Source of the DNA: a virus
IMG/VR virus record: IMGVR_UViG_3300045988_126140
Span: 64,001-128,000 of that record
Length of the DNA: 64,000 bases
Strand: one strand, 5' to 3'
Shown here: positions 14,909 to 61,090 of the stretch, one piece after another
Layout: the number at the start of each line of letters is the position of its first letter
How positions within the stretch are numbered: position 1 is the first letter of the stretch
Position numbers and translations under genes: made by a program
Notes under the pieces: model-generated
What the model saw: the letters and a program-made list of their open reading frames with translations, nothing else
Databases searched by the model: none
Told to the model about the DNA's origin: nothing

Positions 14909-15006
14909 AATATCACCCCCTAAAGGAATATGTTTTATAATTAAACATATACTAAAAAAGCCGATTTGTCTCATGTTTAAAGACATGAGTGTTCTTGGTT
15001 GCATAT

Positions 15007-24801: not shown

Positions 24802-25921
24802 TTAATTAGCCAAGAAAATATGTCTCTTTTTCTTATTCCTATTTTTCTTTCTTATATCTCTTTCTATCAATTCTGCTAAATAATTACCATAAGTAATAGA
24901 AGAATATCTATCCTTACGATTTCTTCCTTTTTCTTTAAGAACTATATCACCATTCCCCATAGTTTCATAATCTAAGTTTATTGATTCAAATATAAAATTA
25001 GATGTTTGAATAAATGGTGCTATTTTATTAGCATGATATTCTGCGTCTTGATGATATTTTAAGTCTTTACTAAAATCTCCTCTTTTTTCATTTTCTTCTA
25101 TTAATAATCTTATTTTTTTACTACTAAAAGCATTTTTAAGATATACTGCACAATCATTATTTATTTTTTGATTCCCTTTAATTACATATATACAATTTAT
25201 ACCATTTTTTAAAGGTTGAAAATCTTTTGATTGCGTACTCATATCATAAATACCAAAAGGTTCGTAATGTTCATCAATATTTTCGTCATAAGATGATTTT
25301 TCCATCTCTTGTATTACTGCTATACCTAAACCACCACCATCTATAATGATTTTATCAGCTTTAAATTCTGTATATAATCTCTTAATTCTAGTGGCTTGTT
25401 TTTCAAATTTCATACCATTATGTGATTCCATATAAACAACTTCTCTAATAATATTATTTCCACTAGGAAGTAATCTCCATAAAGTAAAAATAGAGTTATC
25501 ATTTTTATTTGATTTGTTAGCTTTTGCCGTTGCTACGTCAACTGAAATTATTCTTATTTCATCTTTCTTTTTAGGCATTCGTTTTAATTTTTCTTTCTTT
25601 TTATCTGGATTCCTATAATCGTCGTCCGTTAATGGATAATAACAATTCTTTAAAACTCTTGCATTCAACATATCTGCTGTATTAAAGAAACAATCTCCAC
25701 TTTGTCCATGCCATATAGCACCATATTCCATATTAAATACAAATTCACCCATATCCTCTTTATCTTCTTCAATCTTATCTTTTAAGACAAGTTTATGGTC
25801 TAAAGATGCCAAATAAGGAATTGCACAAGCAAATGCTTTTCCATTTTCAAACATTCTATTAAATATGGTTGTGAATTTTTCATAACTCCAGTGAACTTTT
25901 AACCACGCACTAGAAAGATAT
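24802..25921 (-). CDS. terL: terminase large subunit, exon 2 (nuclease half)
   Basis: This is track ORF 24802..25854 extended upstream to the inferred 3' splice site. The joined sequence reads ...PLESNMEI|YLSSAWLKVHWSYEKF.... Confidence 0.7.
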
Positions 25922-26175: not shown

Positions 26176-27156
26176 TTATCTCGGTATTAGCTTATTTATA
26201 AAATAATCATTTAAAGTTTTAATTGTATTTTCATAATAAGGTATTCTTAACATATTTATATTATTACTTTTACAATAATTATTTTTAATTCCATCTTTAA
26301 TTATTTGGATTTTAAATCCTTCTTCTCCTCCAAATAATTCTACTGGCATAAAATGTTGTCTACCATCGTATTCAACAACTAAATTATAATTAGGAATATA
26401 AAAATCAAATCTTAGTACATCATTATATTTACAATCATTGAATATGTATTCTCTTTCAAATCCAATATTTTTACTTAATAAATATTCCAGAATTTCTTGT
26501 TCCCCTTTGCTAATTGTAGCTTTTGACATTTTGTCATATCCTTTTCTAGCCATACATTTGGGGCAAATTATTTCAATATTGTTTTTAATTTTATCTTTAA
26601 TGTGATAAAAATTTTGCTCATATTCTTTTCCACATTTACATTTTAATTTTAATTTTTCGCCTGGAATATATTCAGTAGACAATAATTCACTTTCACCAGT
26701 ACTTTCACATATAAGTTTTACGTCATGGAAACTACAATAATGTCCATTATTGTTTTCTATATTTCTTTGTTTTCTTATTTTTTCAGCACATTTAGGACAA
26801 GTTTTTGTTTTACTTTTTTTAAATAATTCCCATGTTGTTTCATAAGTTTCACCACACGTTCCACATTTAACTAATAGTGAAGTATATACATTTTTATATT
26901 CAGTTGAAAGTAATTTATTACCATAAGATTCAATTTCACTTCTAACTTTATCTATACTCACTTTGTTATTAGAACAAGTTTGACAATAATATCTTTTTTT
27001 ATTTTTAAAATCTTGAAAACTTCTTTCAAATACATCTCCACATTTACAACGAATTTTCAATTTTTGTTTGTTATTAATATACTCTTTAGTTAATAAGGTA
27101 CAACCTTTTGATTCTATATATTCCTTAACTTTATCATAATCATATCTAACTCCCAT
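26176..27156 (-). CDS. intron-encoded nuclease: three zinc-ribbon repeats plus a PD-(D/E)xK (Vsr/DUF559-like) C-terminal domain
   Basis: Three repeats of Y..x..L.(I/V)(K/R)C.CG..(F/Y)E....F.....C..C are present. The C-terminus reads RFDFYIPNYNLVVEYDGRQHF. The ORF lies wholly inside the intron. Confidence 0.6.
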   Translation of the reverse strand: MGVRYDYDKVKEYIESKGCTLLTKEYINNKQKLKIRCKCGDVFERSFQDFKNKKRYYCQTCSNNKVSIDKVRSEIESYGNKLLSTEYKNVYTSLLVKCGTCGETYETTWELFKKSKTKTCPKCAEKIRKQRNIENNNGHYCSFHDVKLICESTGESELLSTEYIPGEKLKLKCKCGKEYEQNFYHIKDKIKNNIEIICPKCMARKGYDKMSKATISKGEQEILEYLLSKNIGFEREYIFNDCKYNDVLRFDFYIPNYNLVVEYDGRQHFMPVELFGGEEGFKIQIIKDGIKNNYCKSNNINMLRIPYYENTIKTLNDYFINKLIPR

Positions 27157-27220: not shown

Positions 27221-27337
27221 TTAATTATTTTATAAACTTAGCCTTTCTTACCATGTATATCACTATACATTTGACCGATTTTACCCTATTTTAAATATAA
27301 GCACTTATACTTTACTTATATTGAGACATATCTTTTT

Positions 27338-27978
27338 ATCTCCATATTTGATTCTAATGGATAATCTTTATATTCGGGTTTTTCTAAAAACGGAGGTTTT
27401 CTTGGATTTGTTAAGAATTGTTTTAAAACTGAATTTATTACATCTAATTTGATAAGCCTAAATTCATCTGCAACCAATACATTCCCTCTCAAGCCTCTCG
27501 CTCCATCATTAGAAGCTATAGCTGTTATTACAGAACCATTTTTAAATATACATTTAACATTATCTTTATTATTTTGAACTTTTTTAATTTCTTTTGCTAA
27601 CGCAGGGTAATCCCTTCGTAAATCTTCAATCTTTTCGGTTATAATTAATCCTGCCTGGTCTTTGTTACCAGATGCAACTATTATTTTAGAACCTGGATAT
27701 AATATTGCTCTACAACATACAAATATCGCAGTTAGAAATGACTTACCGAGACCACGTGACGCAATAAAGCAGAAACTTGTGCATATATTCATCATATAAA
27801 GTAATATTTGTTGAAACAAATATAAATTAATTCCTAACCAATCCATACAAAATCTATGTGGATTTTTTCTAAAATATTCTGTCCATATTTTTACACCATC
27901 TAATAAATTTTCATATGAATCTTTTTTTAAGTTTTTTCTTTGTTTGCATTTTAATCTATTCTCCATATCCTTTTTCAT
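27338..27978 (-). CDS. terL: terminase large subunit, exon 1 (ATPase half; start uncertain, 27978 or 27966)
   Basis: Walker A-like SRGLGKSF and Walker B VLVADEF are present. The layout LGINLYLFQQILL... is typical of TerL N-termini. Confidence 0.75.
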
Positions 27979-28801
27979 CCTCCTCTGTATAAGGAGTTGA
28001 ATCATTATTTATTAACTTTTTAATAGGATTTAAGAAGTAACGATTTAACCACCATTTAATTCTATCCACATCATCGTATTCTTGGTGGACATCTGGAATA
28101 GGTTCATTTTTTTCTACTTTAGCAATTAATGTACCATAACTTAAATTATCGTCTTCACCATATTTGCTCATTTTAGATGGTAAAACATTTAGTTCTTCCA
28201 TACGTTTAGAAATTTGATTAGTTAAGTTTTCAAATGCTTTTTGGTCATTCTTAACTATAGCTCTTTCTCTTAAAACTTCTAACATACATATTGTTTTAAT
28301 TAAATTAACTTCTTGAATGGCTTTAGACGGATAATTATCTGTGTATTGTTCATATTTTCTTTGGAGTAATTCATACTCATCATCTTGAAATCCCTTACCC
28401 CAAAAGTTAACAATCTCACTTGAAGTAACTGTCTCTCCAGTAATAATATTAGTTACACCATCATAAGTAAGCATATTATCTAAAGATGTTAACCCTTTAA
28501 ATGCTTTATCTCTATTCATTATTCTAGTATAATTACCTAAAAAATTATTGCCATATTTCTCAACACATTTTAGATATGTTTCTTCGTCATAATACATATC
28601 TAAAACCATACATAAATGTATAAATGCTAATCTACGGTCGTTGTTATAATTTTTTAATAACTTTTTAAAATATTTATCAACTACTTCTTTACTCATGGGT
28701 AATTTCTTATCATGCTCATAAAGCATTGATTGTGTAGAGTAGAAATCTCTAACGGTAGGTTTAAATTTACCTGTAGCTGAACATTGTTTTGTGTCTGCCA
28801 T
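27956..28801 (-). CDS. terminase small subunit, putative
   Basis: A 281-aa ORF immediately upstream of terL and overlapping it. Assigned by position only. Confidence 0.45.
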   Translation of the reverse strand: MADTKQCSATGKFKPTVRDFYSTQSMLYEHDKKLPMSKEVVDKYFKKLLKNYNNDRRLAFIHLCMVLDMYYDEETYLKCVEKYGNNFLGNYTRIMNRDKAFKGLTSLDNMLTYDGVTNIITGETVTSSEIVNFWGKGFQDDEYELLQRKYEQYTDNYPSKAIQEVNLIKTICMLEVLRERAIVKNDQKAFENLTNQISKRMEELNVLPSKMSKYGEDDNLSYGTLIAKVEKNEPIPDVHQEYDDVDRIKWWLNRYFLNPIKKLINNDSTPYTEEDEKGYGE

Positions 28802-34990: not shown

Positions 34991-35123
34991 AATACCACTC
35001 CTTTTTATTAATTATTTTTGATAATGCTTATATTTTTTATACAATCCATATAACACTAATGTATTTTAAATGCTTTATCTTTTCTCATACATTCATGGTC
35101 TACCACCTCCTTTCTTATATTAC

Positions 35124-35163
35124 TATATTAACGAAATTATATTAAAAATTACCTATGATTTTA
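35124..35163 (-). promoter_or_regulatory. class II bipartite promoter-like motif
   Basis: On the minus strand: TAAAATCATAGGTAATTTTTAATATAATTTCGTTAATATA. Confidence 0.5.
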
Positions 35164-35379
35164 TTTCTTTTTATTTTTAATTATAGCGTCGTGAATTACT
35201 ACTATCATTATTAGTATAATCATAGGAAGAAACATAATTCCTGTTAATGTTATTATAAAAGCTACCTCTCCAAATGCTTCACCAACTATAACTGAATATT
35301 TTAAAGCTTTAAATAATATAAATGCAGTTATCACAGCTCCTGATAATGTTGCACTATTTTTACCAGCATATCTCCACAT
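35161..35379 (-). CDS. small membrane protein
   Basis: A 72-aa ORF with two hydrophobic segments. Confidence 0.55.
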   Translation of the reverse strand: MWRYAGKNSATLSGAVITAFILFKALKYSVIVGEAFGEVAFIITLTGIMFLPMIILIMIVVIHDAIIKNKKK

Positions 35380-35410
35380 AATATCAACTCCTTTTTATTT
35401 ATTTCTTATT

Positions 35411-35451
35411 TATGTATTAACATAACTGTATCAAAAATTACCTATGAATTA
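35411..35451 (-). promoter_or_regulatory. class II bipartite promoter-like motif
   Basis: On the minus strand: TAATTCATAGGTAATTTTTGATACAGTTATGTTAATACATA. Confidence 0.5.
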
Positions 35452-35533
35452 CAAAAAATATGTATGTCCTCCAAGATTTTTATTAAGCTTCTTTAATACC
35501 ATTACAAAAACACTCCGAATATATGTGTTATTT

Positions 35534-35575
35534 TATATAATTAACAACTAATAATGAAAAATTACCTATGAATTA
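35534..35575 (-). promoter_or_regulatory. class II bipartite promoter-like motif
   Basis: On the minus strand: TAATTCATAGGTAATTTTTCATTATTAGTTGTTAATTATATA. Confidence 0.45.
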
Positions 35576-35667
35576 CATTATTTTTAATATATATAGTATT
35601 TAATTTAGTATTTAATAGTATTTAGAGTGCCTATATATGTTGATATCGCTTGTATTCAGACTATTAT

Positions 35668-35861
35668 ATATGAGTTTTAAAGGTTTTAATATGTGTTTTT
35701 AAGGAACAAATATGTTAAATTAAGTATTATTTCATTTATAAATATGTGTTTTTAAGGTTATTTTATTTCCTTAATTACTCATAATAATTTTAAATATGTT
35801 AAAATAAGGGACTATTAATATGAGATATTAAGGGTTATAATATAACTATGAGAAATTAAGG
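35668..35861 (+). repeat. iteron array upstream of rep (6-7 copies of about ATATGWGNTTTTAAGG)
   Basis: ATATGAGTTTTAAAGG, ATATGTGTTTTTAAGG (twice), ATATGTTAAATTAAG, ATATGTTAAAATAAGGG, ATATGAGATATTAAGGG and CTATGAGAAATTAAGG. They are preceded at 35593..35627 by three tandem AGTATTTAA units. Confidence 0.75.
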
Positions 35862-35870
35862 AGGTTTAAT

Positions 35871-36827
35871 ATGAGCAAAAATCAAATACTTATGAAAAAT
35901 AATACAATAGTTAGTGCTAGATATAACATATCTCTTATGCATAATAATATATTTATTTTCATATTGTATAAACTTCAGAAAGCTAAGTCTGGTAATGCAT
36001 ATTGTTATATAAGCAAACAAGAATTTCAAAATCTTATTTCAAATAAAACACAGAAAACAGTTCCAGGTATTAAAAAAGTATTAGATAATATGCTAGATGA
36101 AAAAATATATTTTAGAGAAGATGGTGAGTGGAGCTGTAAATATAGTATTATAGCTGGGTATGAATATAATAAAAAAGAAGATTTATTTAAAATAGTTGTC
36201 ATTGATAAAGTTTATCATCTTCTTATGAATTACAAAGCTTATACACCTATTAATATGAAAATATTTTTAACTTTAAAATCAATATATAGCCAAAGATTAT
36301 ATGACCTTCTTAGATTATGGAGTAATACAAAAGAAAATATAACATATGAACTAGATGAATTAAAAGATTTGTTAATGCTAAATAACAAATATAATTTGTA
36401 TGCTGATTTTAAAAGAAATGTTCTTCAACGAGCTAAAAAAGAATTAAATAATACTGGAATGTTTGAATTATCATATACCGAAAATAAAAAAGGACGAAGT
36501 GTAAAGTCTATAACATTTCATGTGAAAGATTTAGATAAAAGAGTATATTTTAAAAAGAAACAAACTGAACAAATTTCGCCATTGTCATACATTTCTAATA
36601 AGGATTTAATATCAAATGATTGTATATCATCTTTTCAAAAAGATTTTGAACTAATAGATTTCACATACGAAGATATGAATCAAGCTTTTATTGAATCAAT
36701 TAATATAACATTATCTAAATTTAATGTAGATAAAATAGATTATAATGTATATCCTTACTTTAAAGCTGTGTTAAATAATAAAATTAAGTATTATACTGAC
36801 TTATTTATAAAGACAAGTATTTTTTAA
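35871..36827 (+). CDS. rep: plasmid-type replication initiator, Rep_3 family
   Basis: The N-terminus NNTIVSARYNISLMHNNIFIFILYKL and the later LKSIYSQRLYDLLRLWSN...ITYELDELKDLLML..KYNLYADFKRNVLQRAKKELN follow the Rep_3 pattern as I remember it. Iterons lie upstream. Confidence 0.75.
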   Translation: MSKNQILMKNNTIVSARYNISLMHNNIFIFILYKLQKAKSGNAYCYISKQEFQNLISNKTQKTVPGIKKVLDNMLDEKIYFREDGEWSCKYSIIAGYEYNKKEDLFKIVVIDKVYHLLMNYKAYTPINMKIFLTLKSIYSQRLYDLLRLWSNTKENITYELDELKDLLMLNNKYNLYADFKRNVLQRAKKELNNTGMFELSYTENKKGRSVKSITFHVKDLDKRVYFKKKQTEQISPLSYISNKDLISNDCISSFQKDFELIDFTYEDMNQAFIESINITLSKFNVDKIDYNVYPYFKAVLNNKIKYYTDLFIKTSIF

Positions 36828-37010: not shown

Positions 37011-37080
37011 CAATTTTTCTTAATTTTTAATGTTTTTTATGCATTTTTACTCATTTTTTACTAAAATTTTAGCATTTTAT
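37011..37080. other. phased T-tracts (predicted intrinsically curved DNA)
   Basis: T4-6 runs start at about 37014, 37024, 37033, 37044, 37054, 37067 and 37075, close to a 10-bp period. Confidence 0.7.
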
Positions 37081-37271
37081 TCGTATTTTTTCTTAACAAT
37101 CTCACCAAATTCAGGAGCTTTCATTAAAATTTTCTCACGTATTGACCTATCTTTATAAATTTCCATCAATGATTCTAATTCTTTCAATGAGTTTTCTCTG
37201 ATTACTCCACCAATTATTTCTCTTCCATCTCTTGATTTCATTTCCCATTCTACTTCCCAAATTTCTCTCAT
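37077..37271 (-). CDS. hypothetical protein
   Basis: A 64-aa ORF with an RBS. Confidence 0.5.
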   Translation of the reverse strand: MREIWEVEWEMKSRDGREIIGGVIRENSLKELESLMEIYKDRSIREKILMKAPEFGEIVKKKYE

Positions 37272-37478: not shown

Positions 37479-38597
37479 TTATTTCTTTTTACCATACTTT
37501 TCACATATTTTAAGTACAGTCTCTCTATCAATATAGAAAGTTTGTATTTCTGTACCATATTCCTCATAGTCAAACACTCTCATATTCCCTGCTCCTCTTA
37601 ATAAATGTAAATATCCATAGTTAATTATCATATTAGACCTAATTTCATCTTTACATTTACCACCTATAACGATATTTATATTTTGTTTAGTTATATTAGG
37701 TAATATATCTTTAGAAGGTAATTGGGTAGTTAGTATTAAAAATACCCCTGCCCCTGCACCTCTACTAGCTATTAAAGCTAACATATTGTGAAAATCTTTA
37801 TTCTTCATATAAGAAGATAACTCTTCTATCACTATAAATCTAATAGGCATTTTTTTAAACTTTCTATATTGCCATATATCAGTACAATTTCTATAAGTAA
37901 ACTGTTCATATCTTTTATCTATATCTTGTATAGCATCAAATAATATATCTTCAGCTTCATCTCTGTTTTCTGTATAATGAATTACGTTCTTACAGTTTCT
38001 AAATTCAAATAAATCTACTCTCTTTTCATTGATTAAATCTAATACAACATCACATTTTCTTTTCATTACTAATTGAGATATAATAACTCTTAAACAATTA
38101 GATTTACCACATCTAGTAGCACCTGCTAAATACATATGTGCATTAGAAGGTTCGCTAAAATCAATATATCTAATGCTACAATCTTCTAAATTAATCCCAA
38201 TAGGTATTTTATATCCTTTAGCCTTATGTTTTTCTAAATCAAAGTCAGCACATACTATCTCTTCCTTTTTAATTCTTAATTGAATATAATATCCATTCTT
38301 TTTAAAACTAACATCTTCTTTTTCTTTATTTAATAAATGACAAAACTTATTCTTATTATTACTAAAATCATCTATAGTCATTCCTACAGGTATTATAAAT
38401 TCATATATCTTATAATTTTCATCCTCCCATTTCTTTCTTAACTTAGGTATATCTCCAGAAACATTCTTCATATTGATATTATTAAAGAAATCAGTAAAAT
38501 CAATATGTTTAATATTAAATACATCTAAAACTGATTTACATAATAATGTTATTGTATCCCAAATAGTATTTGTTAAAGGTTCTATTACATTACTCAT
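37479..38597 (-). CDS. FtsK/SpoIIIE-family DNA translocase-like ATPase
   Basis: Walker A is LAGATRCGKSN and Walker B is RFIVIEELS. The size and layout resemble the small FtsK-like proteins of Gram-positive plasmids and ICEs. Confidence 0.7.
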   Translation of the reverse strand: MSNVIEPLTNTIWDTITLLCKSVLDVFNIKHIDFTDFFNNINMKNVSGDIPKLRKKWEDENYKIYEFIIPVGMTIDDFSNNKNKFCHLLNKEKEDVSFKKNGYYIQLRIKKEEIVCADFDLEKHKAKGYKIPIGINLEDCSIRYIDFSEPSNAHMYLAGATRCGKSNCLRVIISQLVMKRKCDVVLDLINEKRVDLFEFRNCKNVIHYTENRDEAEDILFDAIQDIDKRYEQFTYRNCTDIWQYRKFKKMPIRFIVIEELSSYMKNKDFHNMLALIASRGAGAGVFLILTTQLPSKDILPNITKQNINIVIGGKCKDEIRSNMIINYGYLHLLRGAGNMRVFDYEEYGTEIQTFYIDRETVLKICEKYGKKK

Positions 38598-38716: not shown

Positions 38717-39310
38717 ATGACGGAAAGAGATTTAAATGTATTAAACTTTATTAATTTAGTTGCTATGTGTAGAACAGAACATATAAGAAACTTATTTTTT
38801 ACAGGATTAACTAATACCACTTGGGATAGAAGAGCTAATAAATTAGTAGAATATAAGCAATTAAAACGATTTAGAAGTGGAATATATAATAGAGAATATA
38901 TTTATTATATTGAAAATAAACCTAATGAAAGATTACTTAGGCATGATATGTATATAACTGAATTAATATATAATTTATTATTACTAGGTGTAGAAATAAT
39001 ATACGTAGATAGAAACGTTCAATTAGGTAATGTTATAGCAGATGGTTATATTATAATTAGATATAAAAAAGACAATACTATAATTAAGAAAGGCTTATTA
39101 ATAGAAGTTCAATTGCATGGTAGATTATCAGATTGTATAGATAAATACACAGATATTAATCCCATTAAAGAATATGTTATAGAACAAGGTATGCAGACTC
39201 TTCCTTCTCTACTTATTATAAGCGACTTACAGGGTAAGATTAGAAATAAAATTCTTAAAACTATGTGTGTAAACTGTAACTTAGAGTGTTTAGACAAGTG
39301 TATATTATAA
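38717..39310 (+). CDS. replication-relaxation family protein
   Basis: The N-terminus MTERDLNVLNFINLVAMCRTEHIRNLFF...RRANKLVEYKQLKRF matches the Replic_Relax pattern as I remember it. It is divergent from the FtsK-like gene. Confidence 0.55.
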   Translation: MTERDLNVLNFINLVAMCRTEHIRNLFFTGLTNTTWDRRANKLVEYKQLKRFRSGIYNREYIYYIENKPNERLLRHDMYITELIYNLLLLGVEIIYVDRNVQLGNVIADGYIIIRYKKDNTIIKKGLLIEVQLHGRLSDCIDKYTDINPIKEYVIEQGMQTLPSLLIISDLQGKIRNKILKTMCVNCNLECLDKCIL

Positions 39311-39319
39311 TGTAAAATT

Positions 39320-39364
39320 GAGTGTGTGATACAACTATTGCTTGTACTACACACTCTTTTATTT
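39320..39364 (+). terminator. intrinsic terminator
   Basis: GAGTGTGTGATACAACTATTGCTTGTACTACACACTC followed by TTTTATTT. Confidence 0.7.
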
Positions 39365-39920
39365 GGTATTTCAATGGTTTGATACGGTAAACTAAGGAGT
39401 TTATATAGATAAATTAATACGTAGTGGGGAGTATATTATGTCCAATTAACACCGTATTTTCCCATTTATTTCCAATATATTAAATATACTATTAAATTCC
39501 CATTAAATCAAGTACTAATTTATAAACGTAAAATAACATATTTATGATACCATTTCCCGAGAATAAGCACAACATAGAAACATTTAATTTTAATACTTTT
39601 AAATTAGGCAAAATGAAGTATAACAAAAACGTATTAATTTCCTAGTATTCTTGATTTGCAAATATGGCTATGTTGCAAATATAGGAGCTTGTAGGAATTG
39701 CTAAAAATCTAATTCGGTATTTTTTACGACATGTAGTTGGTAAACTACTACACAGAATAAAATTTTTGTCAAGCCCCTCCGAATATGATACCACCCCCTA
39801 GATGTTGAAATATCAACATTTCTTACCCTTTGAAAAAAAATTCCTTCTCCAAAAAGTGTGATTAAGTATTAATTAATCGTACATTCTTAATTTTTTAAAG
39901 TGGTTGACTTGTCCAGAATT

Positions 39921-39984
39921 CTAGTTGTCTACAAGCATTTTGCTAGTTATCCACAAGTATTTTGCTAGTTATCCACAAGCTGTT
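39921..39984 (+). repeat. three tandem 22-bp repeats, each carrying a DnaA box
   Basis: The repeat is CTAGTT(G/A)TC(T/C)ACAAG(C/T)ATTTTG. Perfect TTATCCACA boxes lie at 39947..39955 and 39969..39977. A variant, TTGTCTACA, lies at 39925..39933. A fourth perfect box lies at 40134..40142. Confidence 0.8.
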
Positions 39985-40081
39985 AATATGTATAAATATA
40001 TATACGAAGGCAAGTATTACCAATACTTACAATTACATTTACAACTACATCTCAAGCTAACAACCTATAAGTCTATATAAT

Positions 40082-41315
40082 CTAGTAATATCAACGCTTT
40101 CATACACTTATACACTTTTTTTCTTAATCTAAGTTATCCACAAGTAAAATTTTTCTAATTTTTTCATTTTACATTTTTTACCATTTATTCAATTTCCCCT
40201 AATAATCTAAAGTAATTTGTCTATTTTCCTTTATTTTCCTAAAGCGTCTACACTAAAATGTTCTACGGTTTACCTTTATTACCCAATACTATACAACCGT
40301 TGCAATAACTGTATCCTATACCTATAGTGGGTATATTGTAAAGCGTGAAACGGTTGAAACTGCTACATTCTTCTGTTTTCTTCTATTTGTGTATACCTAT
40401 GTATGGTATTCAATCCTAGTTATATCAACACTTCTATTGTTTTCCTTTGCATTTTCCTAAAGCTTACAACCGTTGATAATGCTAGATAGTTAATAAATAT
40501 ACCTATGATAATTAAGATAATAAATCATAATGTTAATTTACATTAATTAATTAAACTATTCTCTTCTGTTCTCTTTACTATATAAACCATGCATATATTT
40601 TGTCGAATACTCTAAAGCTAGTAATATCAACAACTACAGTATTTTATAATAACTTTACAATATAAAACAATCTTTATATTTTCCCTAATTAAATAAAGCT
40701 AATCCTTGATTTACCTTAATATTTTAAAGGAGATATTATCATTCTGCTTTATTTAATTAAGTTAAACTTATTAATTAATACCAACTTTATTTATTAAACT
40801 TTAAAATCAATTTTAAAATGGAGTATTCCATAAAAATAATTTTGTACTATATACTTTTTTATAGCTTTACTAAAATAAGTATATAGTACTATTCACTTTA
40901 ATAAAATTCGTGACCCTATTTTCTACTATCAATAAGTAAAGTATTCGACATAATGCACTTTACTTATATAAAGTATTCGACACTTGCTTTCACTATATCA
41001 ATTATTTTTTATGTAAGAATTATCTAATATGATACAAATATATTTTAATATATAAATTATTTTTTATGTAAAGAATTAATTATTTAGAGGGCGTAAACTT
41101 TAATAAATAAAGTGACCATATTTTTTACTATCACTTTTTAAAGTAAAACTTGTCGAACACTTTAATAATTGACTGTGGAGTCTATCAATTGCCTTGTTTT
41201 TTAAAGTGTTAATTGTCGGACTATCATATAAATTTATTTTTATGTAAAAATTTAATTTTATAATAAGAAAATCCAACACAACTAAAATATAGCTTAAACT
41301 GTTGATATTACTAAC
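40082..41315. repeat. nested repeat region (candidate origin/partition locus)
   Basis: CTAGTAATATCAAC-type sites lie at 40082, 40416, 40618 and, inverted, at 41301. GTATTCGACA lies at 40941 and 40973 and, inverted, at 40601. TATTTTTATGTAA occurs three times between 41012 and 41258. TTTTCCTAAAGC..ACAACCGTTG occurs twice. Two degenerate units of about 200 bp lie at 40899-41095 and 41098-41260. Confidence 0.7.
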
Positions 41316-41385
41316 TTGTAGCGTTTTTACTTATCATTTTTCTATCTATATATTTTTTAAGAAAAAAATAAATTTCAAAAAATTG

Positions 41386-41415
41386 TTGACAAATTAAACT
41401 AGAACGTGATATTAT
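41386..41415 (+). promoter_or_regulatory. sigma-A-type promoter, first of two in front of the plus-strand early array
   Basis: TTGACA, an 18-nt spacer, then TATTAT with an upstream TG. Confidence 0.6.
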
Positions 41416-41467
41416 ATAAACATAAACAACAACAAAAAAATAATTAATAAAAAATTAAAAAAAGTTG

Positions 41468-41496
41468 TTGACAAAATAGACGACAAGTGATAACAT
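41468..41496 (+). promoter_or_regulatory. sigma-A-type promoter
   Basis: TTGACA, a 17-nt spacer, then TAACAT. The 15-mer lies just upstream at 41437..41451. Confidence 0.55.
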
Positions 41497-41580
41497 TAAA
41501 GTATAAGTATTAGACAAGGGAGAACGCCCAACCGTTCATAAAGTAACAATAAAAATAATTAATAAATAGGAGTGGTAAAT

Positions 41581-52930: not shown

Positions 52931-53713
52931 ATGATGGGGAAAAATATTAATAGAATAGGAGAGAGAAATATAAATACATTTGGAAGTGAAATGGTTATAG
53001 TAGAATATAGAATGAATAGAGATATCGACGTTTATTTTCCAGAATATGACTGGACTTTTAAAAATGCGAGATATGAAACTTTTAAAAAAGGAAACATTAA
53101 ATGTCCTTATGATAGAAGTATATATGGTGTTGGTTACATTGGTGAGGGTAATTATAAGGTAAGTGAAAATCGCAAACTAACTAAAGTTTATAGCACTTGG
53201 CAAAGCATGCTACAAAGATGTTATAGTAATAAATTTCATAAGAAACAACCTACTTATATTGGTTGTGATGTTTCTGAAGAATGGCATAATTTTCAAAACT
53301 TTGCCAAATGGTATTATGAAAATTATTATGAGGTAGAAGGAGAAAAAATGCATTTGGATAAAGATATTTTATATAAACATAATAAGATATACTCTCCTAG
53401 GACTTGCATATTTGTACCTCAAACTATTAATGGTTTATTTATTAAAAGGGATAATAATAGAGGTAAATCAGTTATAGGGACAACGCCTCGTAAAAATGGT
53501 AAATATCAAGTAAAATGTTGTTTAATAAATCCAGAAACAGGTAAGTCTAAATATGAATATTTAGGGATTTATGACACACAAGAAAAAGGGTTTAAAATAT
53601 ATAAGTATTATAAAGAGAAAAATATTAAACAAGTTGCTGACTATTACAAAGATTTAATACCATACAAATTATATCAAGCTTTATATGAGTATGTTGTTGA
53701 AATAGATGATTGA
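52931..53713 (+). CDS. homing-endonuclease-like protein, paralog 1 of 5 (HNH-like core plus AP2-like C-terminal domain)
   Basis: The family signature is G(E/K)...N.FGSEM.I..Y, then Y.TW..ML.RCY...(F/S)..K.PTY..C.V..EWHNFQNF..WY, then LDKDIL.KHNKIYSP.TC.FVPQ.IN, then GKYQV.C.L.NP.TGKS...YLG.YD....AF..YK.YKE. Confidence 0.55.
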   Translation: MMGKNINRIGERNINTFGSEMVIVEYRMNRDIDVYFPEYDWTFKNARYETFKKGNIKCPYDRSIYGVGYIGEGNYKVSENRKLTKVYSTWQSMLQRCYSNKFHKKQPTYIGCDVSEEWHNFQNFAKWYYENYYEVEGEKMHLDKDILYKHNKIYSPRTCIFVPQTINGLFIKRDNNRGKSVIGTTPRKNGKYQVKCCLINPETGKSKYEYLGIYDTQEKGFKIYKYYKEKNIKQVADYYKDLIPYKLYQALYEYVVEIDD

Positions 53714-53767
53714 AAATTTAAAATGATACCAAAAACTATTAATAAATAATATTAAGGGGTGGTAAAA

Positions 53768-54367
53768 ATGATGAAAGAAACTTGGACTGAAAAAGAAATA
53801 AGAAGTTATATGAAGAACTTTGTTAATGACATGGACGAAGAAGACAAAATGGTAATAGGGGATATAATTGATGCAATTCCAATATCAGTAGACGGACGAC
53901 TTAAAAATAGTCTAGGTTACTTCTCTGGTATATATAAAAGAAGTGGAGAATTTGTAGAACCTGTAAAATTTAAATTTTCCAAACGTATTAACTGTTATGA
54001 CGATAACACTATAAAACATATTATAAATCACGAACTTTTACACTTATTATCAGACAAGAAGTATGGTAAAAGTACAAGCCATAACAAAGAATGGAAAGAA
54101 CTTTGCTGTAAATATAGGATAAATGATGATGAATTCTTTACTCCTAATTTAGAATTAGAAAAAGATTATCACCGTTATCATATATATTGTAATGAATGTT
54201 ATAAATTAGTAGGTGTAAGAGACAGATTATCAAAAGAGAAAATAATTCAATTGTTATTATATGGAAGACATCAAGATGATTATGGTAAATTAAGAATATA
54301 TGATAATAAAGAAAAAGGATATATTAAATTAAACAATATAATGGTAAATGATGGTGAAAATAATTAA
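53768..54367 (+). CDS. SprT-like zinc metalloprotease-domain protein
   Basis: It carries IINHELLHLL (HExxH). The start was chosen behind AAGGGG. Confidence 0.55.
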   Translation: MMKETWTEKEIRSYMKNFVNDMDEEDKMVIGDIIDAIPISVDGRLKNSLGYFSGIYKRSGEFVEPVKFKFSKRINCYDDNTIKHIINHELLHLLSDKKYGKSTSHNKEWKELCCKYRINDDEFFTPNLELEKDYHRYHIYCNECYKLVGVRDRLSKEKIIQLLLYGRHQDDYGKLRIYDNKEKGYIKLNNIMVNDGENN

Positions 54368-54437
54368 TAAAACTGTTGACAAATGATAGTGAAATATGAT
54401 ATAATTAATGATATAAAACATAAGGAGGTTGGTAATT

Positions 54438-54920
54438 ATGAATAAAAAATTATCAGTACTAATATTAACAGGGATGTTATCAATATCTATGATAGGATGC
54501 AAAGATGTTGAACTTGATTCTGTGCCAGAAAATACAACTCAACAAATGGATGAGGAAGCAAAAGATAAACAAAAACAACAACTGGTAGAAATAGCATATT
54601 ATTTAACCGAAAATAAGGTGGATGAAATATTCTATGGAAAAGATTACGTTTATAAAATGGAAAAAGATGGTTTAGTATTAACTAACTATTTCCAATATGA
54701 TGAGGTATCTAATGCTATATATACTGGTAAATGGGATAATCTGTTAGATACATTAAAAGAAACATCTAGTACCTTAAAAGAATACTTAAACGACAAAGGT
54801 TACACTAATGTTAGCTTTACAATTCAAATTTGTGACGCAAAGGATAGGGAGGGAACTTGTTATTTGATAATAAAAGATGGTGAAATTGTATTTAACATAG
54901 CAGATAACATGAATCAATAA
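54438..54920 (+). CDS. lipoprotein
   Basis: The signal peptide carries the lipobox LSISMIGC. Confidence 0.65.
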   Translation: MNKKLSVLILTGMLSISMIGCKDVELDSVPENTTQQMDEEAKDKQKQQLVEIAYYLTENKVDEIFYGKDYVYKMEKDGLVLTNYFQYDEVSNAIYTGKWDNLLDTLKETSSTLKEYLNDKGYTNVSFTIQICDAKDREGTCYLIIKDGEIVFNIADNMNQ

Positions 54921-55085
54921 AAGAACTAAAATGATGACAAATAATATTAATTGATAGGCTAGATTTTATTCTAGTCTATTCTTTTATAGTTCAAAAAGAT
55001 TGTAAAAATTATTAATAAATCTATTGACAAAATATACCATATGATATATACTTATACATATATAAGATATTAAAGGGAGGAAAAG

Positions 55086-55988
55086 ATGATGGAAAAAGTT
55101 AATAATATGGAAAGATTAATAAATAATTATATAGCATACTTGAAGGATATAAAAAACTTATCACCTAAAAGTATTAAATCATATATTCCAGTAGTAAAGG
55201 AAATGATTGAGTATTGTGGATTTAAAAGAATAGATGATATACAAAATTCTACTATAATCCAATTACAAAATTGGTTAAACAAAAAAAGAAATGAAGGATT
55301 ATCTAATCAAAGTCTTAACAGAAGGATAGCTAGTTGTAAATCATTTTATGGTTATCTATGTGCATTTAGGATTATTGATTTTAATGCTAGTAAGGAACTT
55401 AAACAATTAAGAATTGAATCTAAAGGTAAAATAGGAAACACAGGACAAGTTGACAAAATAAGAACTTATTTAGAATCTGAATATAATAGAAAACCTAATT
55501 ATATGAATATGAGAAATAGATTGATTGTTGAAGTCATGCTTAATTGTGCTTTAAGAAATTCAGAGCTTAGACAATTAAATATAGATAGTATCAATCCCAA
55601 TACTGGAGAATTTACAGTTATCCAAAAAGGCGGGACTAGGAAATCTTGCGTGTTATCTAGTAAAACATTACAACTATATAATGAATACATGATAGAACGC
55701 AACAGAATCCCTTCTAAGGATAATTCTCTATTTCTTAGTAGTTATAAGAGTAGAATAAGTATTGGTGGCTTAGAAAAGCTTATACACAAGATAACAGAGG
55801 TTACAGGACAACAGTTAAATCCCCACGATTTACGTCATATTTCAGCTACAAAATACGTGGAAGCTGGATTTAGTTGTGATGAGGTCGCAAAGTTACTAGG
55901 GCACTCAAGTAGTAATACAACCTTCAGATTTTATTATCACCAAGATAATGACAATAAAAAGAAAATGGTTGAAAATACATGGGATTAA
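55086..55988 (+). CDS. tyrosine recombinase (XerC/D / phage integrase family)
   Basis: NCALRNSELRQL (Arg box) and HDLRHISATKYVEAGFSCDEVAKLLGHSSSNTTFRFYYH (H-x-x-R, H, Y) are present. Confidence 0.8.
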   Translation: MMEKVNNMERLINNYIAYLKDIKNLSPKSIKSYIPVVKEMIEYCGFKRIDDIQNSTIIQLQNWLNKKRNEGLSNQSLNRRIASCKSFYGYLCAFRIIDFNASKELKQLRIESKGKIGNTGQVDKIRTYLESEYNRKPNYMNMRNRLIVEVMLNCALRNSELRQLNIDSINPNTGEFTVIQKGGTRKSCVLSSKTLQLYNEYMIERNRIPSKDNSLFLSSYKSRISIGGLEKLIHKITEVTGQQLNPHDLRHISATKYVEAGFSCDEVAKLLGHSSSNTTFRFYYHQDNDNKKKMVENTWD

Positions 55989-55991
55989 TTT

Positions 55992-56031
55992 TAATTCATA
56001 GGTAATTTTACTTAAAGTTATGTTAATATAA
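55992..56031 (+). promoter_or_regulatory. class II bipartite promoter-like motif
   Basis: TAATTCATAGGTAATTTTACTTAAAGTTATGTTAATATAA lies upstream of paralog 2. Confidence 0.5.
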
Positions 56032-56131
56032 TGATAACAATTAATAAAGTGGATAAAGTTTTGTTGTGTCACAATTAAAAATAACGTTACTTATCCTCTT
56101 TATTAAATTATAATATAAAGGAGGAGATATT

Positions 56132-56944
56132 ATGGGAAGAAAATCAATAAATAGAACAGGGGAGAAAGGAATTAATAATTTTGGAAGTGAGATGATAATT
56201 GTTAATTCTTATATGAAATTCAATGATAAATATAAAAGAAATTATACTTATGTAGACGTTTATTTCCCAGAGTATAATTGGACTTTTAAAGGTGTAAGAT
56301 ATGAGAGTTTCAAAAATGGTAATGTCAAATGCCCATATGAGAGAACTGTGTTTGGAATAGGTTATGTTGGCGAAGGAAAGTATAAGGTAAGTGAAAATGG
56401 CAAAGACACTAAGAGTTATAATACTTGGCGTAATATGTTGCAAAGATGTTATAATGAAAAATGTCAAGAGAAAAATCCAACTTATAAAGGTTGTACTGTA
56501 TGTGATGAGTGGCATAATTTTCAGAACTTTGCGAAATGGTATGAAGACAATTATTATGAGATAGAAGGTGAGAGAATACATTTGGACAAAGATATTTTAT
56601 GTAAAGGCAATAAAATATATACTCCAGAAACTTGTGTTTTTGTACCACAGACAATTAATATGTTATTTACTAAAAGGCAAAATGATAGAGGGGAATCAGT
56701 TATTGGAACAAGCTATCATAAAAGAGATAAAAAATATCAAGCATATTGTAGTTTAATTAATCCTAAAACTGGTAAATCTAAAGATAAATACTTGGGATAT
56801 TATGATACAGAAATAGAAGCATTTGAGATATACAAATATTATAAAGAACGTAATATTAAACAAGTAGCTGATTATTATAGAGATTTAATACCAGAAAGAT
56901 TATACATGGCATTGTATAATTATGAAGTTGAAATTACAGACTAA
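56132..56944 (+). CDS. homing-endonuclease-like protein, paralog 2 of 5
   Basis: It carries the same signature as 52931..53713. Confidence 0.55.
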   Translation: MGRKSINRTGEKGINNFGSEMIIVNSYMKFNDKYKRNYTYVDVYFPEYNWTFKGVRYESFKNGNVKCPYERTVFGIGYVGEGKYKVSENGKDTKSYNTWRNMLQRCYNEKCQEKNPTYKGCTVCDEWHNFQNFAKWYEDNYYEIEGERIHLDKDILCKGNKIYTPETCVFVPQTINMLFTKRQNDRGESVIGTSYHKRDKKYQAYCSLINPKTGKSKDKYLGYYDTEIEAFEIYKYYKERNIKQVADYYRDLIPERLYMALYNYEVEITD

Positions 56945-56982
56945 AATTGACTATAAAAATAATTAATAAAGGAGATGATAAT

Positions 56983-57792
56983 ATGAGTAACAAAGTACAA
57001 AAATTATTTGATAAATTAGTAGAAAAATATAATATGAGAGCAATAAAAATAGGTGATGAAACATGGTATGCGATGAACGATTTACCATTAGATAGAAAAG
57101 CAATAAACAGAAAAATGAGTGACCTTAGAAAAAACTTATCTGGTAACGGTGATTTTAAATATACTCCAAACTTTGTAGAGCAAAACACAAGATTAATAAC
57201 AAATTCAACGGTGATTTTAAATCACCTTAGAAATTTTGATAAAGTTCATAATACAGGAGAAATGTTTGGTAACTTTACAATGATAAATTACATAGTTATG
57301 ACAAGTAGACTTGGACACGAATATAAAATAGAAATGATAAAAATTTTAGACGAAATAAGAAAAAATGATTTCTATGTAGATGACAATATATCAAAAGAAC
57401 AATTAAACTCGCTTCAGAACAAAGTTAATAAACTAAAAGATAGATTACATTATGAAAGACGTAGAAAGGCTTACGGGGCTACTCAAATAGTTAAAAAAAT
57501 AAATATAGATAATTTGTTGCCAAGTACATTATTTAGATACCTAGATGAATATTTGAATTTAGGAGATTATATAATAGTAAATAAAAATAGAAGATTTAGA
57601 CCTAATGATAATTTTGTTAACAAATGTGCTGATTTAGGTGTAGTCAGAATTGGAGTAAACAATAATATAATATTCTTTAGTGAATTTGCAGAACAAGTAA
57701 ATAGAAACAAAGACATCCTTAATATATTGAAAATAATTAATAAAGAAGAATTACAAATAAGAGAAAAGGGAATTGAAAACAGAATTAAATAA
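56983..57792 (+). CDS. antirepressor-like protein (Bro-N/KilA-C-like)
   Basis: The start MSNKVQ sits behind AGGAG. NMRAIKIGDETWYAMNDL and a C-terminal KilAC-like stretch give weak motif support. Confidence 0.45.
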   Translation: MSNKVQKLFDKLVEKYNMRAIKIGDETWYAMNDLPLDRKAINRKMSDLRKNLSGNGDFKYTPNFVEQNTRLITNSTVILNHLRNFDKVHNTGEMFGNFTMINYIVMTSRLGHEYKIEMIKILDEIRKNDFYVDDNISKEQLNSLQNKVNKLKDRLHYERRRKAYGATQIVKKINIDNLLPSTLFRYLDEYLNLGDYIIVNKNRRFRPNDNFVNKCADLGVVRIGVNNNIIFFSEFAEQVNRNKDILNILKIINKEELQIREKGIENRIK

Positions 57793-57803
57793 TCATTGCT
57801 TTC

Positions 57804-57831
57804 AAGAGGTTTTATACCTCTTATTTTTTTT
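57804..57831 (+). terminator. intrinsic terminator
   Basis: AAGAGGTTTTATACCTCTT followed by ATTTTTTTT. Confidence 0.75.
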
Positions 57832-57973
57832 GCTTTATTTTCAAAATAATTAATAAATTATGAATATTTAAACTCCATTTTGTATATAATATAGTAAAGA
57901 AAATTAATAAAAAGTAGTTGTCATTAAGGATATCATATGTTATACTAAGCAAGACAACTAAGAAGGAGTTAAA

Positions 57974-58846
57974 ATGAAAAAAATGTGTGATAAAAAAATT
58001 AAAATGGACAGAATGGAAAATAGAGTAAACGATTTAATTAATGAAATAGGTGAAAAAAATATAAATGAAGAAGTGATAAAAGATTTTGCTATAAAAAATT
58101 TAAAGACAATTAATAGAAGTAGTTTCTACGATGGATTTAGAATTTTAAAAGAAGTATTAGATACAAAGGGAATTAAATACGATTTAAAAGAAGATGAATT
58201 AATGGAAAAATGTTTATATTTTGACGAATCTAAATACTTCACAAAAACTCAAATATTAGATATAATCAATTCACTTATAAATGCACAAGACAAATTATTA
58301 ATATACATGATATTTAATAAAGTATTAGGTAAGAAATTCAAAGACCTATTAGAAATTAAGGTTTCTGACGTAGCCGAAGACTATAGTTATATAAATGTAA
58401 ATGGAAATAAAATACTATGCGACGATATAATGAAAGAGTTAGTTAAAGACACAATAGAACAAGAAGTATATGTTAATACAACAAGAAGTAGAAACGTACT
58501 TTATTATGATTTAAATATGAATAGTGAATATTTATTCAAGACATTATGTAATAGATATACCAATAATGGTTTAGAACCAATGAAACGTAGTAATTTAAGT
58601 GGAAAATTAACTGTTTTAACAAAAGAATTACAACATGGAGGATTAAATGTTACCTTAACAGCTACAGGAATATATCAGTCTGGAATCATGTATGACATGT
58701 TTGTATTGCAAGTATTAGATAATATTATATGGACTATACAAAATACAAAGAGCTATCTTGATATAAATGGATATAATATGAATGCCAATGAATTAACCTA
58801 TAAATATCACCATTTATATTATGGAACGAACTCTTCAAGAAATTAG
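57974..58846 (+). CDS. hypothetical protein, possibly a degenerate integrase-fold protein
   Basis: A 290-aa ORF. Its layout recalls tyrosine recombinases (..LLIYMIFNKVLGKKFKDLLEIKVSDV..), but the catalytic R/H/Y residues are not evident. Confidence 0.5.
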   Translation: MKKMCDKKIKMDRMENRVNDLINEIGEKNINEEVIKDFAIKNLKTINRSSFYDGFRILKEVLDTKGIKYDLKEDELMEKCLYFDESKYFTKTQILDIINSLINAQDKLLIYMIFNKVLGKKFKDLLEIKVSDVAEDYSYINVNGNKILCDDIMKELVKDTIEQEVYVNTTRSRNVLYYDLNMNSEYLFKTLCNRYTNNGLEPMKRSNLSGKLTVLTKELQHGGLNVTLTATGIYQSGIMYDMFVLQVLDNIIWTIQNTKSYLDINGYNMNANELTYKYHHLYYGTNSSRN

Positions 58847-58873
58847 AGGTTTTTCTCTAGTTTCTTTTTTTTT
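58844..58873 (+). terminator. intrinsic terminator
   Basis: TAGAGGTTTTTCTCTA followed by GTTTCTTTTTTTTT. Confidence 0.7.
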
Positions 58874-58912
58874 GTTTATAGGTAATTTTTCAATACTAAT
58901 TGTTAATATATT
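58874..58912 (+). promoter_or_regulatory. class II bipartite promoter-like motif
   Basis: GTTTATAGGTAATTTTTCAATACTAATTGTTAATATATT. Confidence 0.45.
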
Positions 58913-59061
58913 AGTATAAGAAAGGAGTTGATGCAAATTGAGTGTAGAATAAAAATAATTAATAAAATCAGTTGACAAATTGTAGTGAATATCATATACT
59001 TAATATTATAAATAATCAATAAAATATTAATAAAAATAATAAATAAAGGGGATGGAATATT

Positions 59062-59838: not shown

Positions 59839-59855
59839 AACAATTAGTAATATTA

Positions 59856-59883
59856 AGACTAGATAATTCTAGTCTATTTTTTG
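59856..59883 (+). terminator. intrinsic terminator
   Basis: AGACTAGATAATTCTAGTCT followed by ATTTTTT. Confidence 0.75.
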
Positions 59884-59945
59884 TTCATTTTTTAGTTGAT
59901 AAATATATCAAGATGTGCTACTTTTATATTAAAGGGGTGATAGAT

Positions 59946-60014
59946 ATGAAATATGTATTAACATTTATGTTTATAAATTTAGTTGGTATAACAATGGGCT
60001 TTATATTATTTTAA
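59946..60014 (+). CDS. 22-aa hydrophobic peptide
   Basis: MKYVLTFMFINLVGITMGFILF behind the RBS AAAGGGG. Confidence 0.35.
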   Translation: MKYVLTFMFINLVGITMGFILF

Positions 60015-60099
60015 TTGATTTTAAAAATAATTAATAAAACAGTTGATAAATTATAATAAACATCATATAATATATATAAAATAAAAACAAGGGGGATAA

Positions 60100-60411: not shown

Positions 60412-60490
60412 TTAATAAAGATGTTGACAAAATAGTAAAGGATATGTTATACTTAGTACATAAATAAAATAATAAAGGAGCTGATATAAT

Positions 60491-60832: not shown

Positions 60833-60870
60833 TATAATATACAAAAGATAAAATAAGGGGGAAATTGAAT

Positions 60871-61068: not shown

Positions 61069-61090
61069 TTAATAAAAAAGGGGGATTAAA

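Follow-up and report, generated by a model that had tools for sequence, protein, structure and literature searches.

The window analysed here is a stretch of 64,000 nucleotides of viral DNA (IMG/VR record IMGVR_UViG_3300045988_126140, positions 64,001 to 128,000; 25% GC), and our subject is the 2.2-kb gene-free gap that it contains at 39311-41571. A first-pass annotation, made from the sequence alone, had described 39365-41385 as devoid of open reading frames of 60 amino acids or more; so it is (the longest, on the minus strand at 41100-41279, comes to 59 amino acids), and the true gap extends beyond those limits on both sides. It had also placed the region between a maintenance module and the first early promoters, which is where it lies: a module of Rep_3, FtsK-like and Replic_Relax-like genes stands to the left, the early operon to the right. 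What marks the gap out is a cluster of consensus boxes ("0A boxes") for Spo0A, the host's master regulator of sporulation; the cluster is conserved in all clades and is joined, in the window's own clade, by an array of perfect boxes for DnaA, the master regulator of replication start. The locus is carried by 17 IMG/VR contigs and several ENA or Logan contigs. A gene-free gap of 2.2-2.7 kb with the same synteny recurs in three clades: the window's, an intermediate third lineage (L013), and a group (L041 and L305-L312) whose homologue of the 197-amino-acid protein encoded at the left boundary is 80% identical (the "80%-identity clade" below; gap 2.6-2.7 kb; not in IMG/VR, and retrieved by exact protein look-ups).

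The first-pass annotation had recorded the 0A boxes without recognizing them: it listed a repeat, GTATTCGACA, as occurring twice directly and once inverted, which is the case (40941 and 40973 direct, 40601 inverted), with a variant at 41151 and no copy elsewhere in the window. The family is the reverse complement of TGTCGAATAC, that is, it contains the consensus 0A box TGTCGAA, the sequence recognized by Spo0A of B. subtilis and also by that of C. difficile (PMC2731898, PMC3485338). TGTCGAA occurs six times in 64 kb (2.9 expected), and four of the six fall within 557 bp (40601-41157), where about 0.025 would be expected (Poisson P ~1e-8). Box 1 (40601..40607, plus strand) belongs to the best of the promoter-like elements, a leftward one at 40607 reading TTCGACA-N18-TATAGT on the minus strand, with a -10 hexamer that becomes TATAAT in L005 and L030; boxes 2 and 3 (40944..40982, minus strand, at 40944 and 40976) are 32 bp apart, and 17-18 bp to the right of each comes a -10-like hexamer; box 4 (41151..41157, plus strand) keeps its 40-nt context in the 80%-identity clade, and 41214-41220 holds a variant, TGTCGGA.

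In each of the 12 sequences compared, drawn from the three clades, the same part of the gap holds between two and five perfect 0A boxes, as against 0-3 in flanks of 5-62 kb, and in these gaps each TGNCGAA is a perfect TGTCGAA. Four control loci (SPbeta, a Clostridioides phage, a Wbeta-like phage and a Paraclostridium plasmid) show no TGTCGAA cluster; a 25-kb SPbeta stretch (L039) has two copies together, ~14 kb from the equivalent intergenic gap, and no perfect DnaA box. The box cores are 94-99% conserved, compared with 86% for the whole gap, and substitutions and 1-nt indels are found directly beside intact cores. Most of the boxes occupy the would-be -35 position of sigma-A-like promoter-like elements: a -10-like hexamer lies 17-18 bp from the TCGACA hexamer in 27 of 37 distinct site contexts (20% background), contexts that we grouped into ~12 ortholog sets, ~8 of them with the hexamer.

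In the window the 0A boxes flank and interleave with AT-rich repeats. Here the first-pass annotation had counted three occurrences of TATTTTTATGTAA; the exact sequence is found only at 41235 and the other copies carry an extra T, but the family is real in the form of 22-23-nt units, (C)ATATAAATT(T)ATTTTT(T)ATGTAA, at 40995, 41050 and 41225 (40995..41266, plus strand). No duplex in the region is less stable than these repeats, which rank at the 99.85th percentile for instability among 40-bp windows of the whole stretch. The AT-rich 23-mer CATATAAATTTATTTTTATGTAA is exact across clades, in 3-5 copies.

To the left of this core, and in the window's clade only, lie the DnaA boxes. Perfect copies of TTATCCACA begin at 39947, 39969 and 40134, all on the plus strand and within 196 bp; the window has four in 64 kb (0.75 expected), and the Poisson probability of three in 196 bp is ~2e-9. 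The first two sit in a tandem array of three 22-bp units (39921..39986, plus strand), the first of which carries a degenerate box with two mismatches, TTGTCTACA, at 39925; the tandem itself is as the first-pass annotation had it (39921-39980, period 22, 2.7 copies, 89% matches). So are the two perfect boxes and one variant within it and the perfect box at 40134 (40134..40142, plus strand; from pattern search and conservation), but the perfect boxes number three in all rather than four. With the degenerate one they make four boxes in 220 bp, at least three being the number expected of an oriC-type region. The relatives have TTATCAACA in their first 22-bp unit, and its flanks there are unrelated. 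In L009 and L012 the spacer between boxes 1 and 2 has been rewritten with both boxes still perfect; with spacings of 11-12 and 22 bp, L009 reaches five perfect boxes and a near-perfect sixth, and in L012 there are four perfect ones. The box cores have an identity of 0.93-0.96, the left flank of box 1 one of 0.43; the cores are kept while flanks and spacers diverge, and selection acts on the DnaA box itself and not on a 22-bp iteron.

Binding of DnaA, as predicted from these patterns, is well supported in the window's clade alone. Neither TTATCCACA nor TTATNCACA occurs in L013, L041 or L305-L312, despite the same gap and the same synteny, and DnaA therefore cannot be the core function. The boxes sit in a variable cassette that directly follows an invariant 27-nt element (below). 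The cassette at 39990..40130 (plus strand), with a G-poor, CA-rich tract (GC skew -0.6), is replaced in L009 and L012 by one that has the extra DnaA boxes, and L013 and L041 have CA-rich tracts of other sequence at the same position. A short all-AT tract, 39982-40006, follows box 2. The DnaA-trio, defined as 3'-[G/A]A[T/A]-5' repeated more than three times, with a GC cluster before it and the DNA unwinding element after it (PMC7561715), was sought beside the boxes (39978-40080, all registers) together with its GC cluster and not found: at best, alternate triplets match.

Transcription signals bound the gap. On the left, the predicted intrinsic terminator of the 197-amino-acid gene (39315..39365, plus strand) consists of a hairpin of -17.5 kcal/mol (z = -4.4) followed by the U-run UUUUAUUU; the homologous site in L041 is likewise flagged as a terminator. 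On the right (41386..41496, plus strand) are two predicted strong sigma-A promoters, P1 at 41386 (TTGACA-18-TATTAT) and P2 at 41468 (TTGACA-17-TAACAT), which share the word AAAttGTTGACAAA, found elsewhere only on the plus strand of the right (early) arm. Just upstream of P1 a 23-nt word, ATTTTTCTATCTATATATTTTTT (41336..41358, plus strand), is identical in the distant clade. (In the 80%-identity clade an additional leader of ~400 bp, at 12880-13177 of L041, precedes the first early gene; the window does not have this leader, whose hairpin, ATAGGAG...CTCCTAT, with a T-run after it, is reminiscent of an attenuator or terminator.) The cumulative GC skew and the orientation of genes both switch at about 41.0-41.4 kb. 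In this genome it is the coding strand that skew tracks (positive for rep and the 197-amino-acid gene), and across 40.0-41.0 kb the minus strand is purine-rich, like sense strands elsewhere.

What, if anything, does the gap encode? Independent gene callers, those of the source databases, made no calls in the gap of the source contig, of its relatives or of the more distant clade. Recoding of stop codons was rejected as an explanation, because all three stops are frequent in all six frames. Conserved small proteins were rejected as well: a 22-codon hydrophobic reading frame at 40819 has no ATG in L007, and the cross-clade six-frame matches fall in several frames of one and the same DNA, and therefore represent conservation of DNA rather than of a peptide. 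A tRNA search of the region found none; Rfam 15, run over the 64 kb, gave no match at the gathering threshold and, in the gap, two chance-level matches only (E > 1); no internal terminators were found in the gap.

Comparison with the relatives shows where constraint lies. All of them retain, at 85-99% identity, the segment that runs from Rep_3 through the gap, and the DNA on either side of it is mosaic. Within the window's clade the gap diverges by 6-12.5% from close relatives; four-fold sites of three flanking genes diverge by 8-20% (0-20% if the near-identical L001 is included) and codon positions 1 and 2 by ~1-2%. The gap turns over at ~0.5-0.9 times the synonymous rate, and constraint is therefore patchy: short conserved islands amid sequence turnover. 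Between the window and the 80%-identity clade only 282 of 2075 bases of the gap can be aligned (14%). The survivors of that comparison are the block 39780-39902, with the 27-nt element in it, a TATACC/GGTATA inverted repeat with the word AACCGTTG, the TGTCGAA-containing repeat, the AT-rich 23-mer and the 23-mer upstream of P1. A strikingly large share of the metagenomic contigs (L002, L004, L008, L010, L011, L013, L014, L025, L307-L312) end in the gap or a few kb from it. For several, in both clades, the break falls at the variable cassette, 700-940 bp after the 197-amino-acid gene; assemblies were probably broken by hypervariability at the strain level, although physical genome ends may be another cause.

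The single-copy 27-nt element, TGATTAAGTATTAATTAATCGTACATT (39859..39885), contains a 7-bp inverted repeat and is nearly invariant in three clades (96% column identity). Its neighbours in the conserved left block include an inverted repeat, ATTCGG ... CCGAAT (39711..39784), which reads ATTCGA ... TCGAAT in L041, changed on both sides with pairing kept, and the palindrome of the first-pass annotation, more exactly a 7-bp inverted repeat, ATGTTGA-AATA-TCAACAT, around a 4-nt centre (39802..39819, z = -4.6), which starts at 39802 and not at 39801 and whose right arm, with TTTCT, is kept in all clades. An alignment fold of this block yields a single compensated pair. In a sliding-window fold scan the strongest z-scores belong to the inverted repeat at 40844-40889 and to a 21-nt inverted repeat at 40679-40766. 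The former, 17 bp with 94% complementarity and a fold z of about -5.3 on both strands, is a feature of the window sequence only: in all relatives GATAAA replaces TAT in its left arm, and pairing is spoiled.

The remaining repeat families of the first-pass list are also real and, within the 64 kb, confined to the gap. Four CTAGTAATATCAAC-type sites, one of them inverted, had been reported; allowing up to two mismatches there are five, two of them inverted. Written as CTAGT(A/T)ATATCAAC and located by pattern search, they lie at 40082, 40416 and 40618 in direct orientation (40082..40631, plus strand) and at 40472 and 41301 inverted; one extra-gap match at 17419 brings the window total to six (1.5 expected). 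In the 80%-identity clade CTAGTAATTGCAA-type sites take their place. (The tetranucleotide CTAG is 2.3-fold enriched within the gap.) The two longer degenerate units of the earlier list are confirmed. One, TTTTCC..ATTTTCCTAAAGC..ACAACCGTTG..TATACCTAT, is present in two copies at 40222..40510 (plus strand; repeat search), with a homologous element in L041; the same block holds TATACC/GGTATA inverted repeats at 40317 and 40392 and four occurrences of AACGGTTG, and its TATACCTAT cores are 96-100% conserved. The other, ACTTTAATAAA..GTGACC..TACTATCA, forms two 49-nt units, 80% identical, at 40895..41145 (plus strand). The CTAGTAATATCAAC/CTAGTAATTGCAA, AACGGTTG and TATACCTAT families and the invariant 27-nt element probably bind further proteins.

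The element that carries this gap is, to judge from its sequence, an SPbeta-like gut phage-plasmid of ~133 kb: the window matches a human-gut metagenome scaffold of 133,562 bp (L029, ENA ERZ28662998) at 100%, and two Pfam families specific to SPbeta, YonG_N and YonV_C, are represented among the genes near the gap. For the yonV-like protein, identity is 42% with its counterparts in SPbeta and phi3T and 47% with those in two ~132-kb Clostridioides phage-plasmids; in both of the latter, as in SPbeta, the yonV-like gene is arranged differently and no equivalent gap is present. Searches of public phage and plasmid collections (megablast, blastn) found no DNA relatives; the sole match in a genome-collection scan was a 1.9-kb contig of a Firmicutes metagenome-assembled genome; and collection-wide IMG/VR scans with 14-mers of two of the repeat families gave only chance matches. 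The left arm, on the minus strand, has tail, portal, terminase and sigma-like genes, and the right arm, on the plus strand, has the early genes and numerous HNH endonucleases.

The maintenance module begins with the Rep_3 initiator gene (35871..36827, plus strand; Pfam Rep3_N/Rep3_C), which has about five copies of an iteron-like repeat, AATATGnnnnnnTAAGG, directly upstream (35688-35835). Its closest relatives, on Paraclostridium and Clostridium plasmids, are only 40-43% identical, and the Paraclostridium plasmid with the closest Rep_3 is an ordinary, non-syntenic one. Two further repeats were seen nearby: AAAAATTACCTATGA(A/T)TT, in three copies around small minus-strand genes left of rep (35118-35590), and an 11-bp tandem, TTTTTTACGCA, in 5.5 copies just downstream of it (37033-37091). 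Next come a gene for an FtsK/SpoIIIE-like ATPase (37479..38597, minus strand; Pfam PF01580 and PHROG 1358) and the 197-amino-acid gene at the left boundary of the gap (38717..39310, plus strand). A direct Pfam search with the 197-amino-acid protein of the window gives no match, and it is classed as a divergent Replic_Relax-like protein (Replication-relaxation, PF13814) by way of its homologues: 34 of 44 that were linked to it by phmmer match PF13814 (best E = 5.7e-12), and H76, D109 and E130 are invariant among them. The pairing of FtsK-like and Replic_Relax-like genes recurs in L045 (which carries a 51%-identical relative), L048, phage McSteamy, Wbeta-like phages and pBClin15-like phage-plasmids, a widespread two-gene module of Firmicute temperate phages and phage-plasmids; in the pBClin15-like phage-plasmids its role is uncharacterised (PMC11526630).

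Some features farther afield deserve a brief record. The large terminase is apparently split into an ATPase part (27316-28005) and a nuclease-like part (24802-25854), and an HNH homing-endonuclease gene (26176-27156) between the two halves could be part of an intron or another mobile insertion. A transposase gene (13766-15004; PHROG 506, E = 7e-129) lies within the tail-gene block. Four paralogous HNH endonuclease genes (PHROG 953) start at 52931, 56132, 59062 and 61091 (block 52931-61867). Between them lie genes for a tyrosine recombinase (55086-55988) and for a second recombinase-like protein (57974-58846), the latter a possible MrpR-like repressor (PMC10516654). GATC does not occur at all in the 64-kb window, where base composition predicts ~150 sites; its absence suggests that a restriction system specific for GATC is being strongly avoided.

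Several well-studied systems combine elements of this kind. The oriR of P1, also a phage-plasmid with an iteron-type initiator gene, has iterons and tandem DnaA boxes next to repA, the latter serving as host-factor sites; the DnaA boxes of the window, in contrast, are ~3-4 kb from rep and its iteron-like repeats, with two genes between. Lactococcus phage c2 has a non-coding origin of ~0.6 kb between its divergent early and late genes, where non-coding transcription from a promoter is tied to origin function; the gap is likewise gene-free, with promoters at the divergence of early and late transcription, although the two share no sequence similarity and we know of no report of DnaA or Spo0A boxes in the c2 region. 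The origin oriC of B. subtilis and Clostridia resembles the gap in uniting DnaA boxes, 0A boxes and a candidate AT-rich unwinding site in one non-coding region (PMC7561715, PMC2731898), and differs in having a DnaA-trio, a GC cluster and a dnaA or dnaN context; in the gap, moreover, DnaA boxes are missing from the sister clades and stand ~0.9 kb from the AT-rich block. SPbeta itself uses dispersed operators, the SPBRE, bound by the repressor MrpR at about ten early promoters (PMC10516654): the lineage is related (YonG and YonV homologues) and short regulatory words are repeated in both, but here the repeat families are confined to one gap.

The closest parallel is phi29. Its genome has six consensus 0A boxes near early promoters and origins, at which Spo0A represses transcription and blocks initiation of replication, with the result that the phage genome ends up trapped inside the spore; chromosomal initiation at oriC is likewise blocked by Spo0A (PMC2731898). 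The likeness lies in the several TGTCGAA boxes (near early promoters and replication starts in phi29), in a number and placement of boxes that vary between related phage groups, and in the outcome that would be expected here by analogy: suppression of lytic development in sporulating cells and entrapment in the spore. There are differences: phi29 is a virulent phage of 19 kb with protein-primed replication from terminal origins, not a ~133-kb SPbeta-like phage-plasmid of the gut; mapped promoters are only tens of bp away from its boxes, whereas those discussed here are predicted sites in a 2.2-kb gene-free gap; and it has Spo0J parS sites, of which none were found in the gap.

The reading that we favour, and to which we give about even odds, is that the region is a conserved non-coding control region that docks host factors and is gated by phosphorylated Spo0A (Spo0A~P); it would probably tie early development and replication of the phage to the state of a spore-forming host, presumably a low-GC Firmicute. 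Its core in every clade would be the 0A-box cluster, most of it at putative -35 positions, interleaved with or beside easily melted AT-rich repeats. As the host commits to sporulation, Spo0A~P would, by analogy with phi29 and B. subtilis oriC, occupy the boxes, gating early transcription and probably also origin firing: local promoters would be switched, and opening or initiation at the AT-rich block prevented. Lytic development and replication would be restrained, and the phage-plasmid would be carried into the spore. The window's clade would have added a DnaA array 0.5-1 kb to the left of the 0A/AT-rich core; host DnaA recruited there would either assist origin firing or report how able the host is to initiate replication. 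That a replication origin lies within the region at all we put at somewhat under even odds; AT-rich repeats, DnaA boxes and the switch of orientation and skew at about 41.0-41.4 kb are the indirect evidence that makes it plausible.

Among the alternatives, a purely transcriptional locus without an origin seems unlikely, if least so; regulatory RNAs had also been on the first-pass list of possibilities. TTCGACA-N17/18-TAnnnT elements would then be real promoters, which Spo0A would activate or repress, driving mostly leftward non-coding transcripts that regulate lysis-lysogeny or maintenance. The enrichment of -10-like hexamers at the correct spacing, the TTCGACA-18-TATAAT of L005 and L030, the purine-rich minus strand and a left-hand terminator that is possibly bidirectional all suit it; the absence of an Rfam match and of internal terminators, covariation that is nearly nil and a sequence that turns over at ~0.5-0.9 times the synonymous rate, with 14% of it alignable between clades, do not. 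A second origin, DnaA-dependent or lytic, was the first of the suggestions of the first-pass annotation, which as a whole is partly supported: selection on the boxes favours DnaA binding in the window's clade, AT-rich repeats and the divergence of gene orientation keep an origin plausible, and the boxless sister clades and the missing trio speak against one that depends on DnaA. In its full form (an oriC-like origin at which DnaA oligomerizes on the array and opens nearby AT-rich DNA without need of Rep_3) we consider it decidedly unlikely. It would draw on the three to five perfect, co-oriented boxes with their 11/22-bp phasing, on the all-AT tract after box 2 and on a location at the divergence point of gene orientation, but it must contend with homologous gaps that have no DnaA box, with a CA-rich tract that fits the trio rule in every second triplet only and no GC cluster adjacent to the boxes, and with the strongest unstable DNA being ~0.9 kb away.

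Could the gap instead be the target in cis of its neighbours, the FtsK-like ATPase and the Replic_Relax-like protein, as a centromere or as a clt-/oriT-like or nicking site for segregation or DNA translocation? It directly adjoins the conserved gene pair, it confines several short asymmetric repeat families, one of which switches specificity between clades, and its nearly invariant 27-nt element is 550 bp from the 197-amino-acid gene. The same pair, however, does without a long gap in Wbeta-like phages and in L045, and its function is not established (PMC11526630). No ParA, ParM, TubZ or ParB gene lies within 10 kb on either side and no Spo0J parS in the region, which tells equally against the centromere-like partition site proposed in the first-pass annotation; we regard a target of this kind as improbable. 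Very improbable is a decoy, at which arrays soak up host DnaA, and perhaps Spo0A~P, and so manipulate host replication or sporulation. Such titration of DnaA is what datA and clusters of DnaA boxes do, the boxes are dense, perfect and variable in number among close relatives, and while the element replicates as a plasmid or lytically the locus would be present in many copies; but a decoy would require neither a fixed position by the early promoters nor a conserved framework, and sister clades have no DnaA boxes. Hardly worth crediting, finally, are decayed coding DNA, a packaging (pac/cos) site, likewise proposed at first, or additional Rep_3 iterons. The many metagenomic contigs that end in or near the gap and the 22-bp tandem period might suggest them. 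Yet the six-frame matches speak for no conserved peptide; contig ends are scattered over kilobases, not at one site, and the terminase genes are about 11-14 kb distant; and where Rep_3 iterons would be tandem 17-22-bp units conserved as whole units next to rep, only the DnaA-box cores are conserved here, and the rep-proximal repeats are unrelated.

Spo0A gating, the favoured reading, has difficulties of its own. The repeated unit (tTGTCGAAtact) is longer than the 0A box, and what truly binds it could be a phage protein with a specificity like that of Spo0A. Between the boxes and P1, which is downstream of them, there are 230-790 bp, more than classical repression of P1 or P2 allows. In DNA so rich in AT, the promoter-like elements match the consensus only weakly, and neither terminators nor Rfam families mark any transcripts. 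DnaA boxes are clade-specific, distant from the strongest AT-rich block and without a trio, and skew, because it tracks the coding strand, is no independent locator of an origin. The Rep_3 gene has iteron-like repeats of its own 4 kb away, and that locus could supply the only origin. As to the host, we only infer that it sporulates, because the Paraclostridium and Clostridium plasmids carry Rep_3 proteins that are such distant relatives.

One can go a step further, to a doubtful proposal: that uncultured gut phage-plasmids of spore-forming Clostridia might possess a "decision module", in which Spo0A~P, joined in one lineage by DnaA, acts on a combined origin/promoter array; the choice between maintenance, lytic replication and the spore would be read from both regulators, and the host-factor cassette beside an invariant framework would be exchangeable between lineages. 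To our knowledge, the small virulent Bacillus phage phi29 and its relatives are essentially the only phages in which control through Spo0A boxes has been worked out. If the Spo0A reading is right, phi29-type logic would extend to large temperate phage-plasmids of gut spore-formers, and would explain their persistence through sporulation and transmission between human hosts. Clustered TGTCGAA beside AT-rich repeats, with or without DnaA boxes, would then be a signature from which a spore-forming host, and control linked to sporulation, could be predicted for uncultured phages. The lineage-specific gain and expansion of DnaA boxes, for its part, amounts to a clean natural experiment on the recruitment of host initiators by mobile elements.

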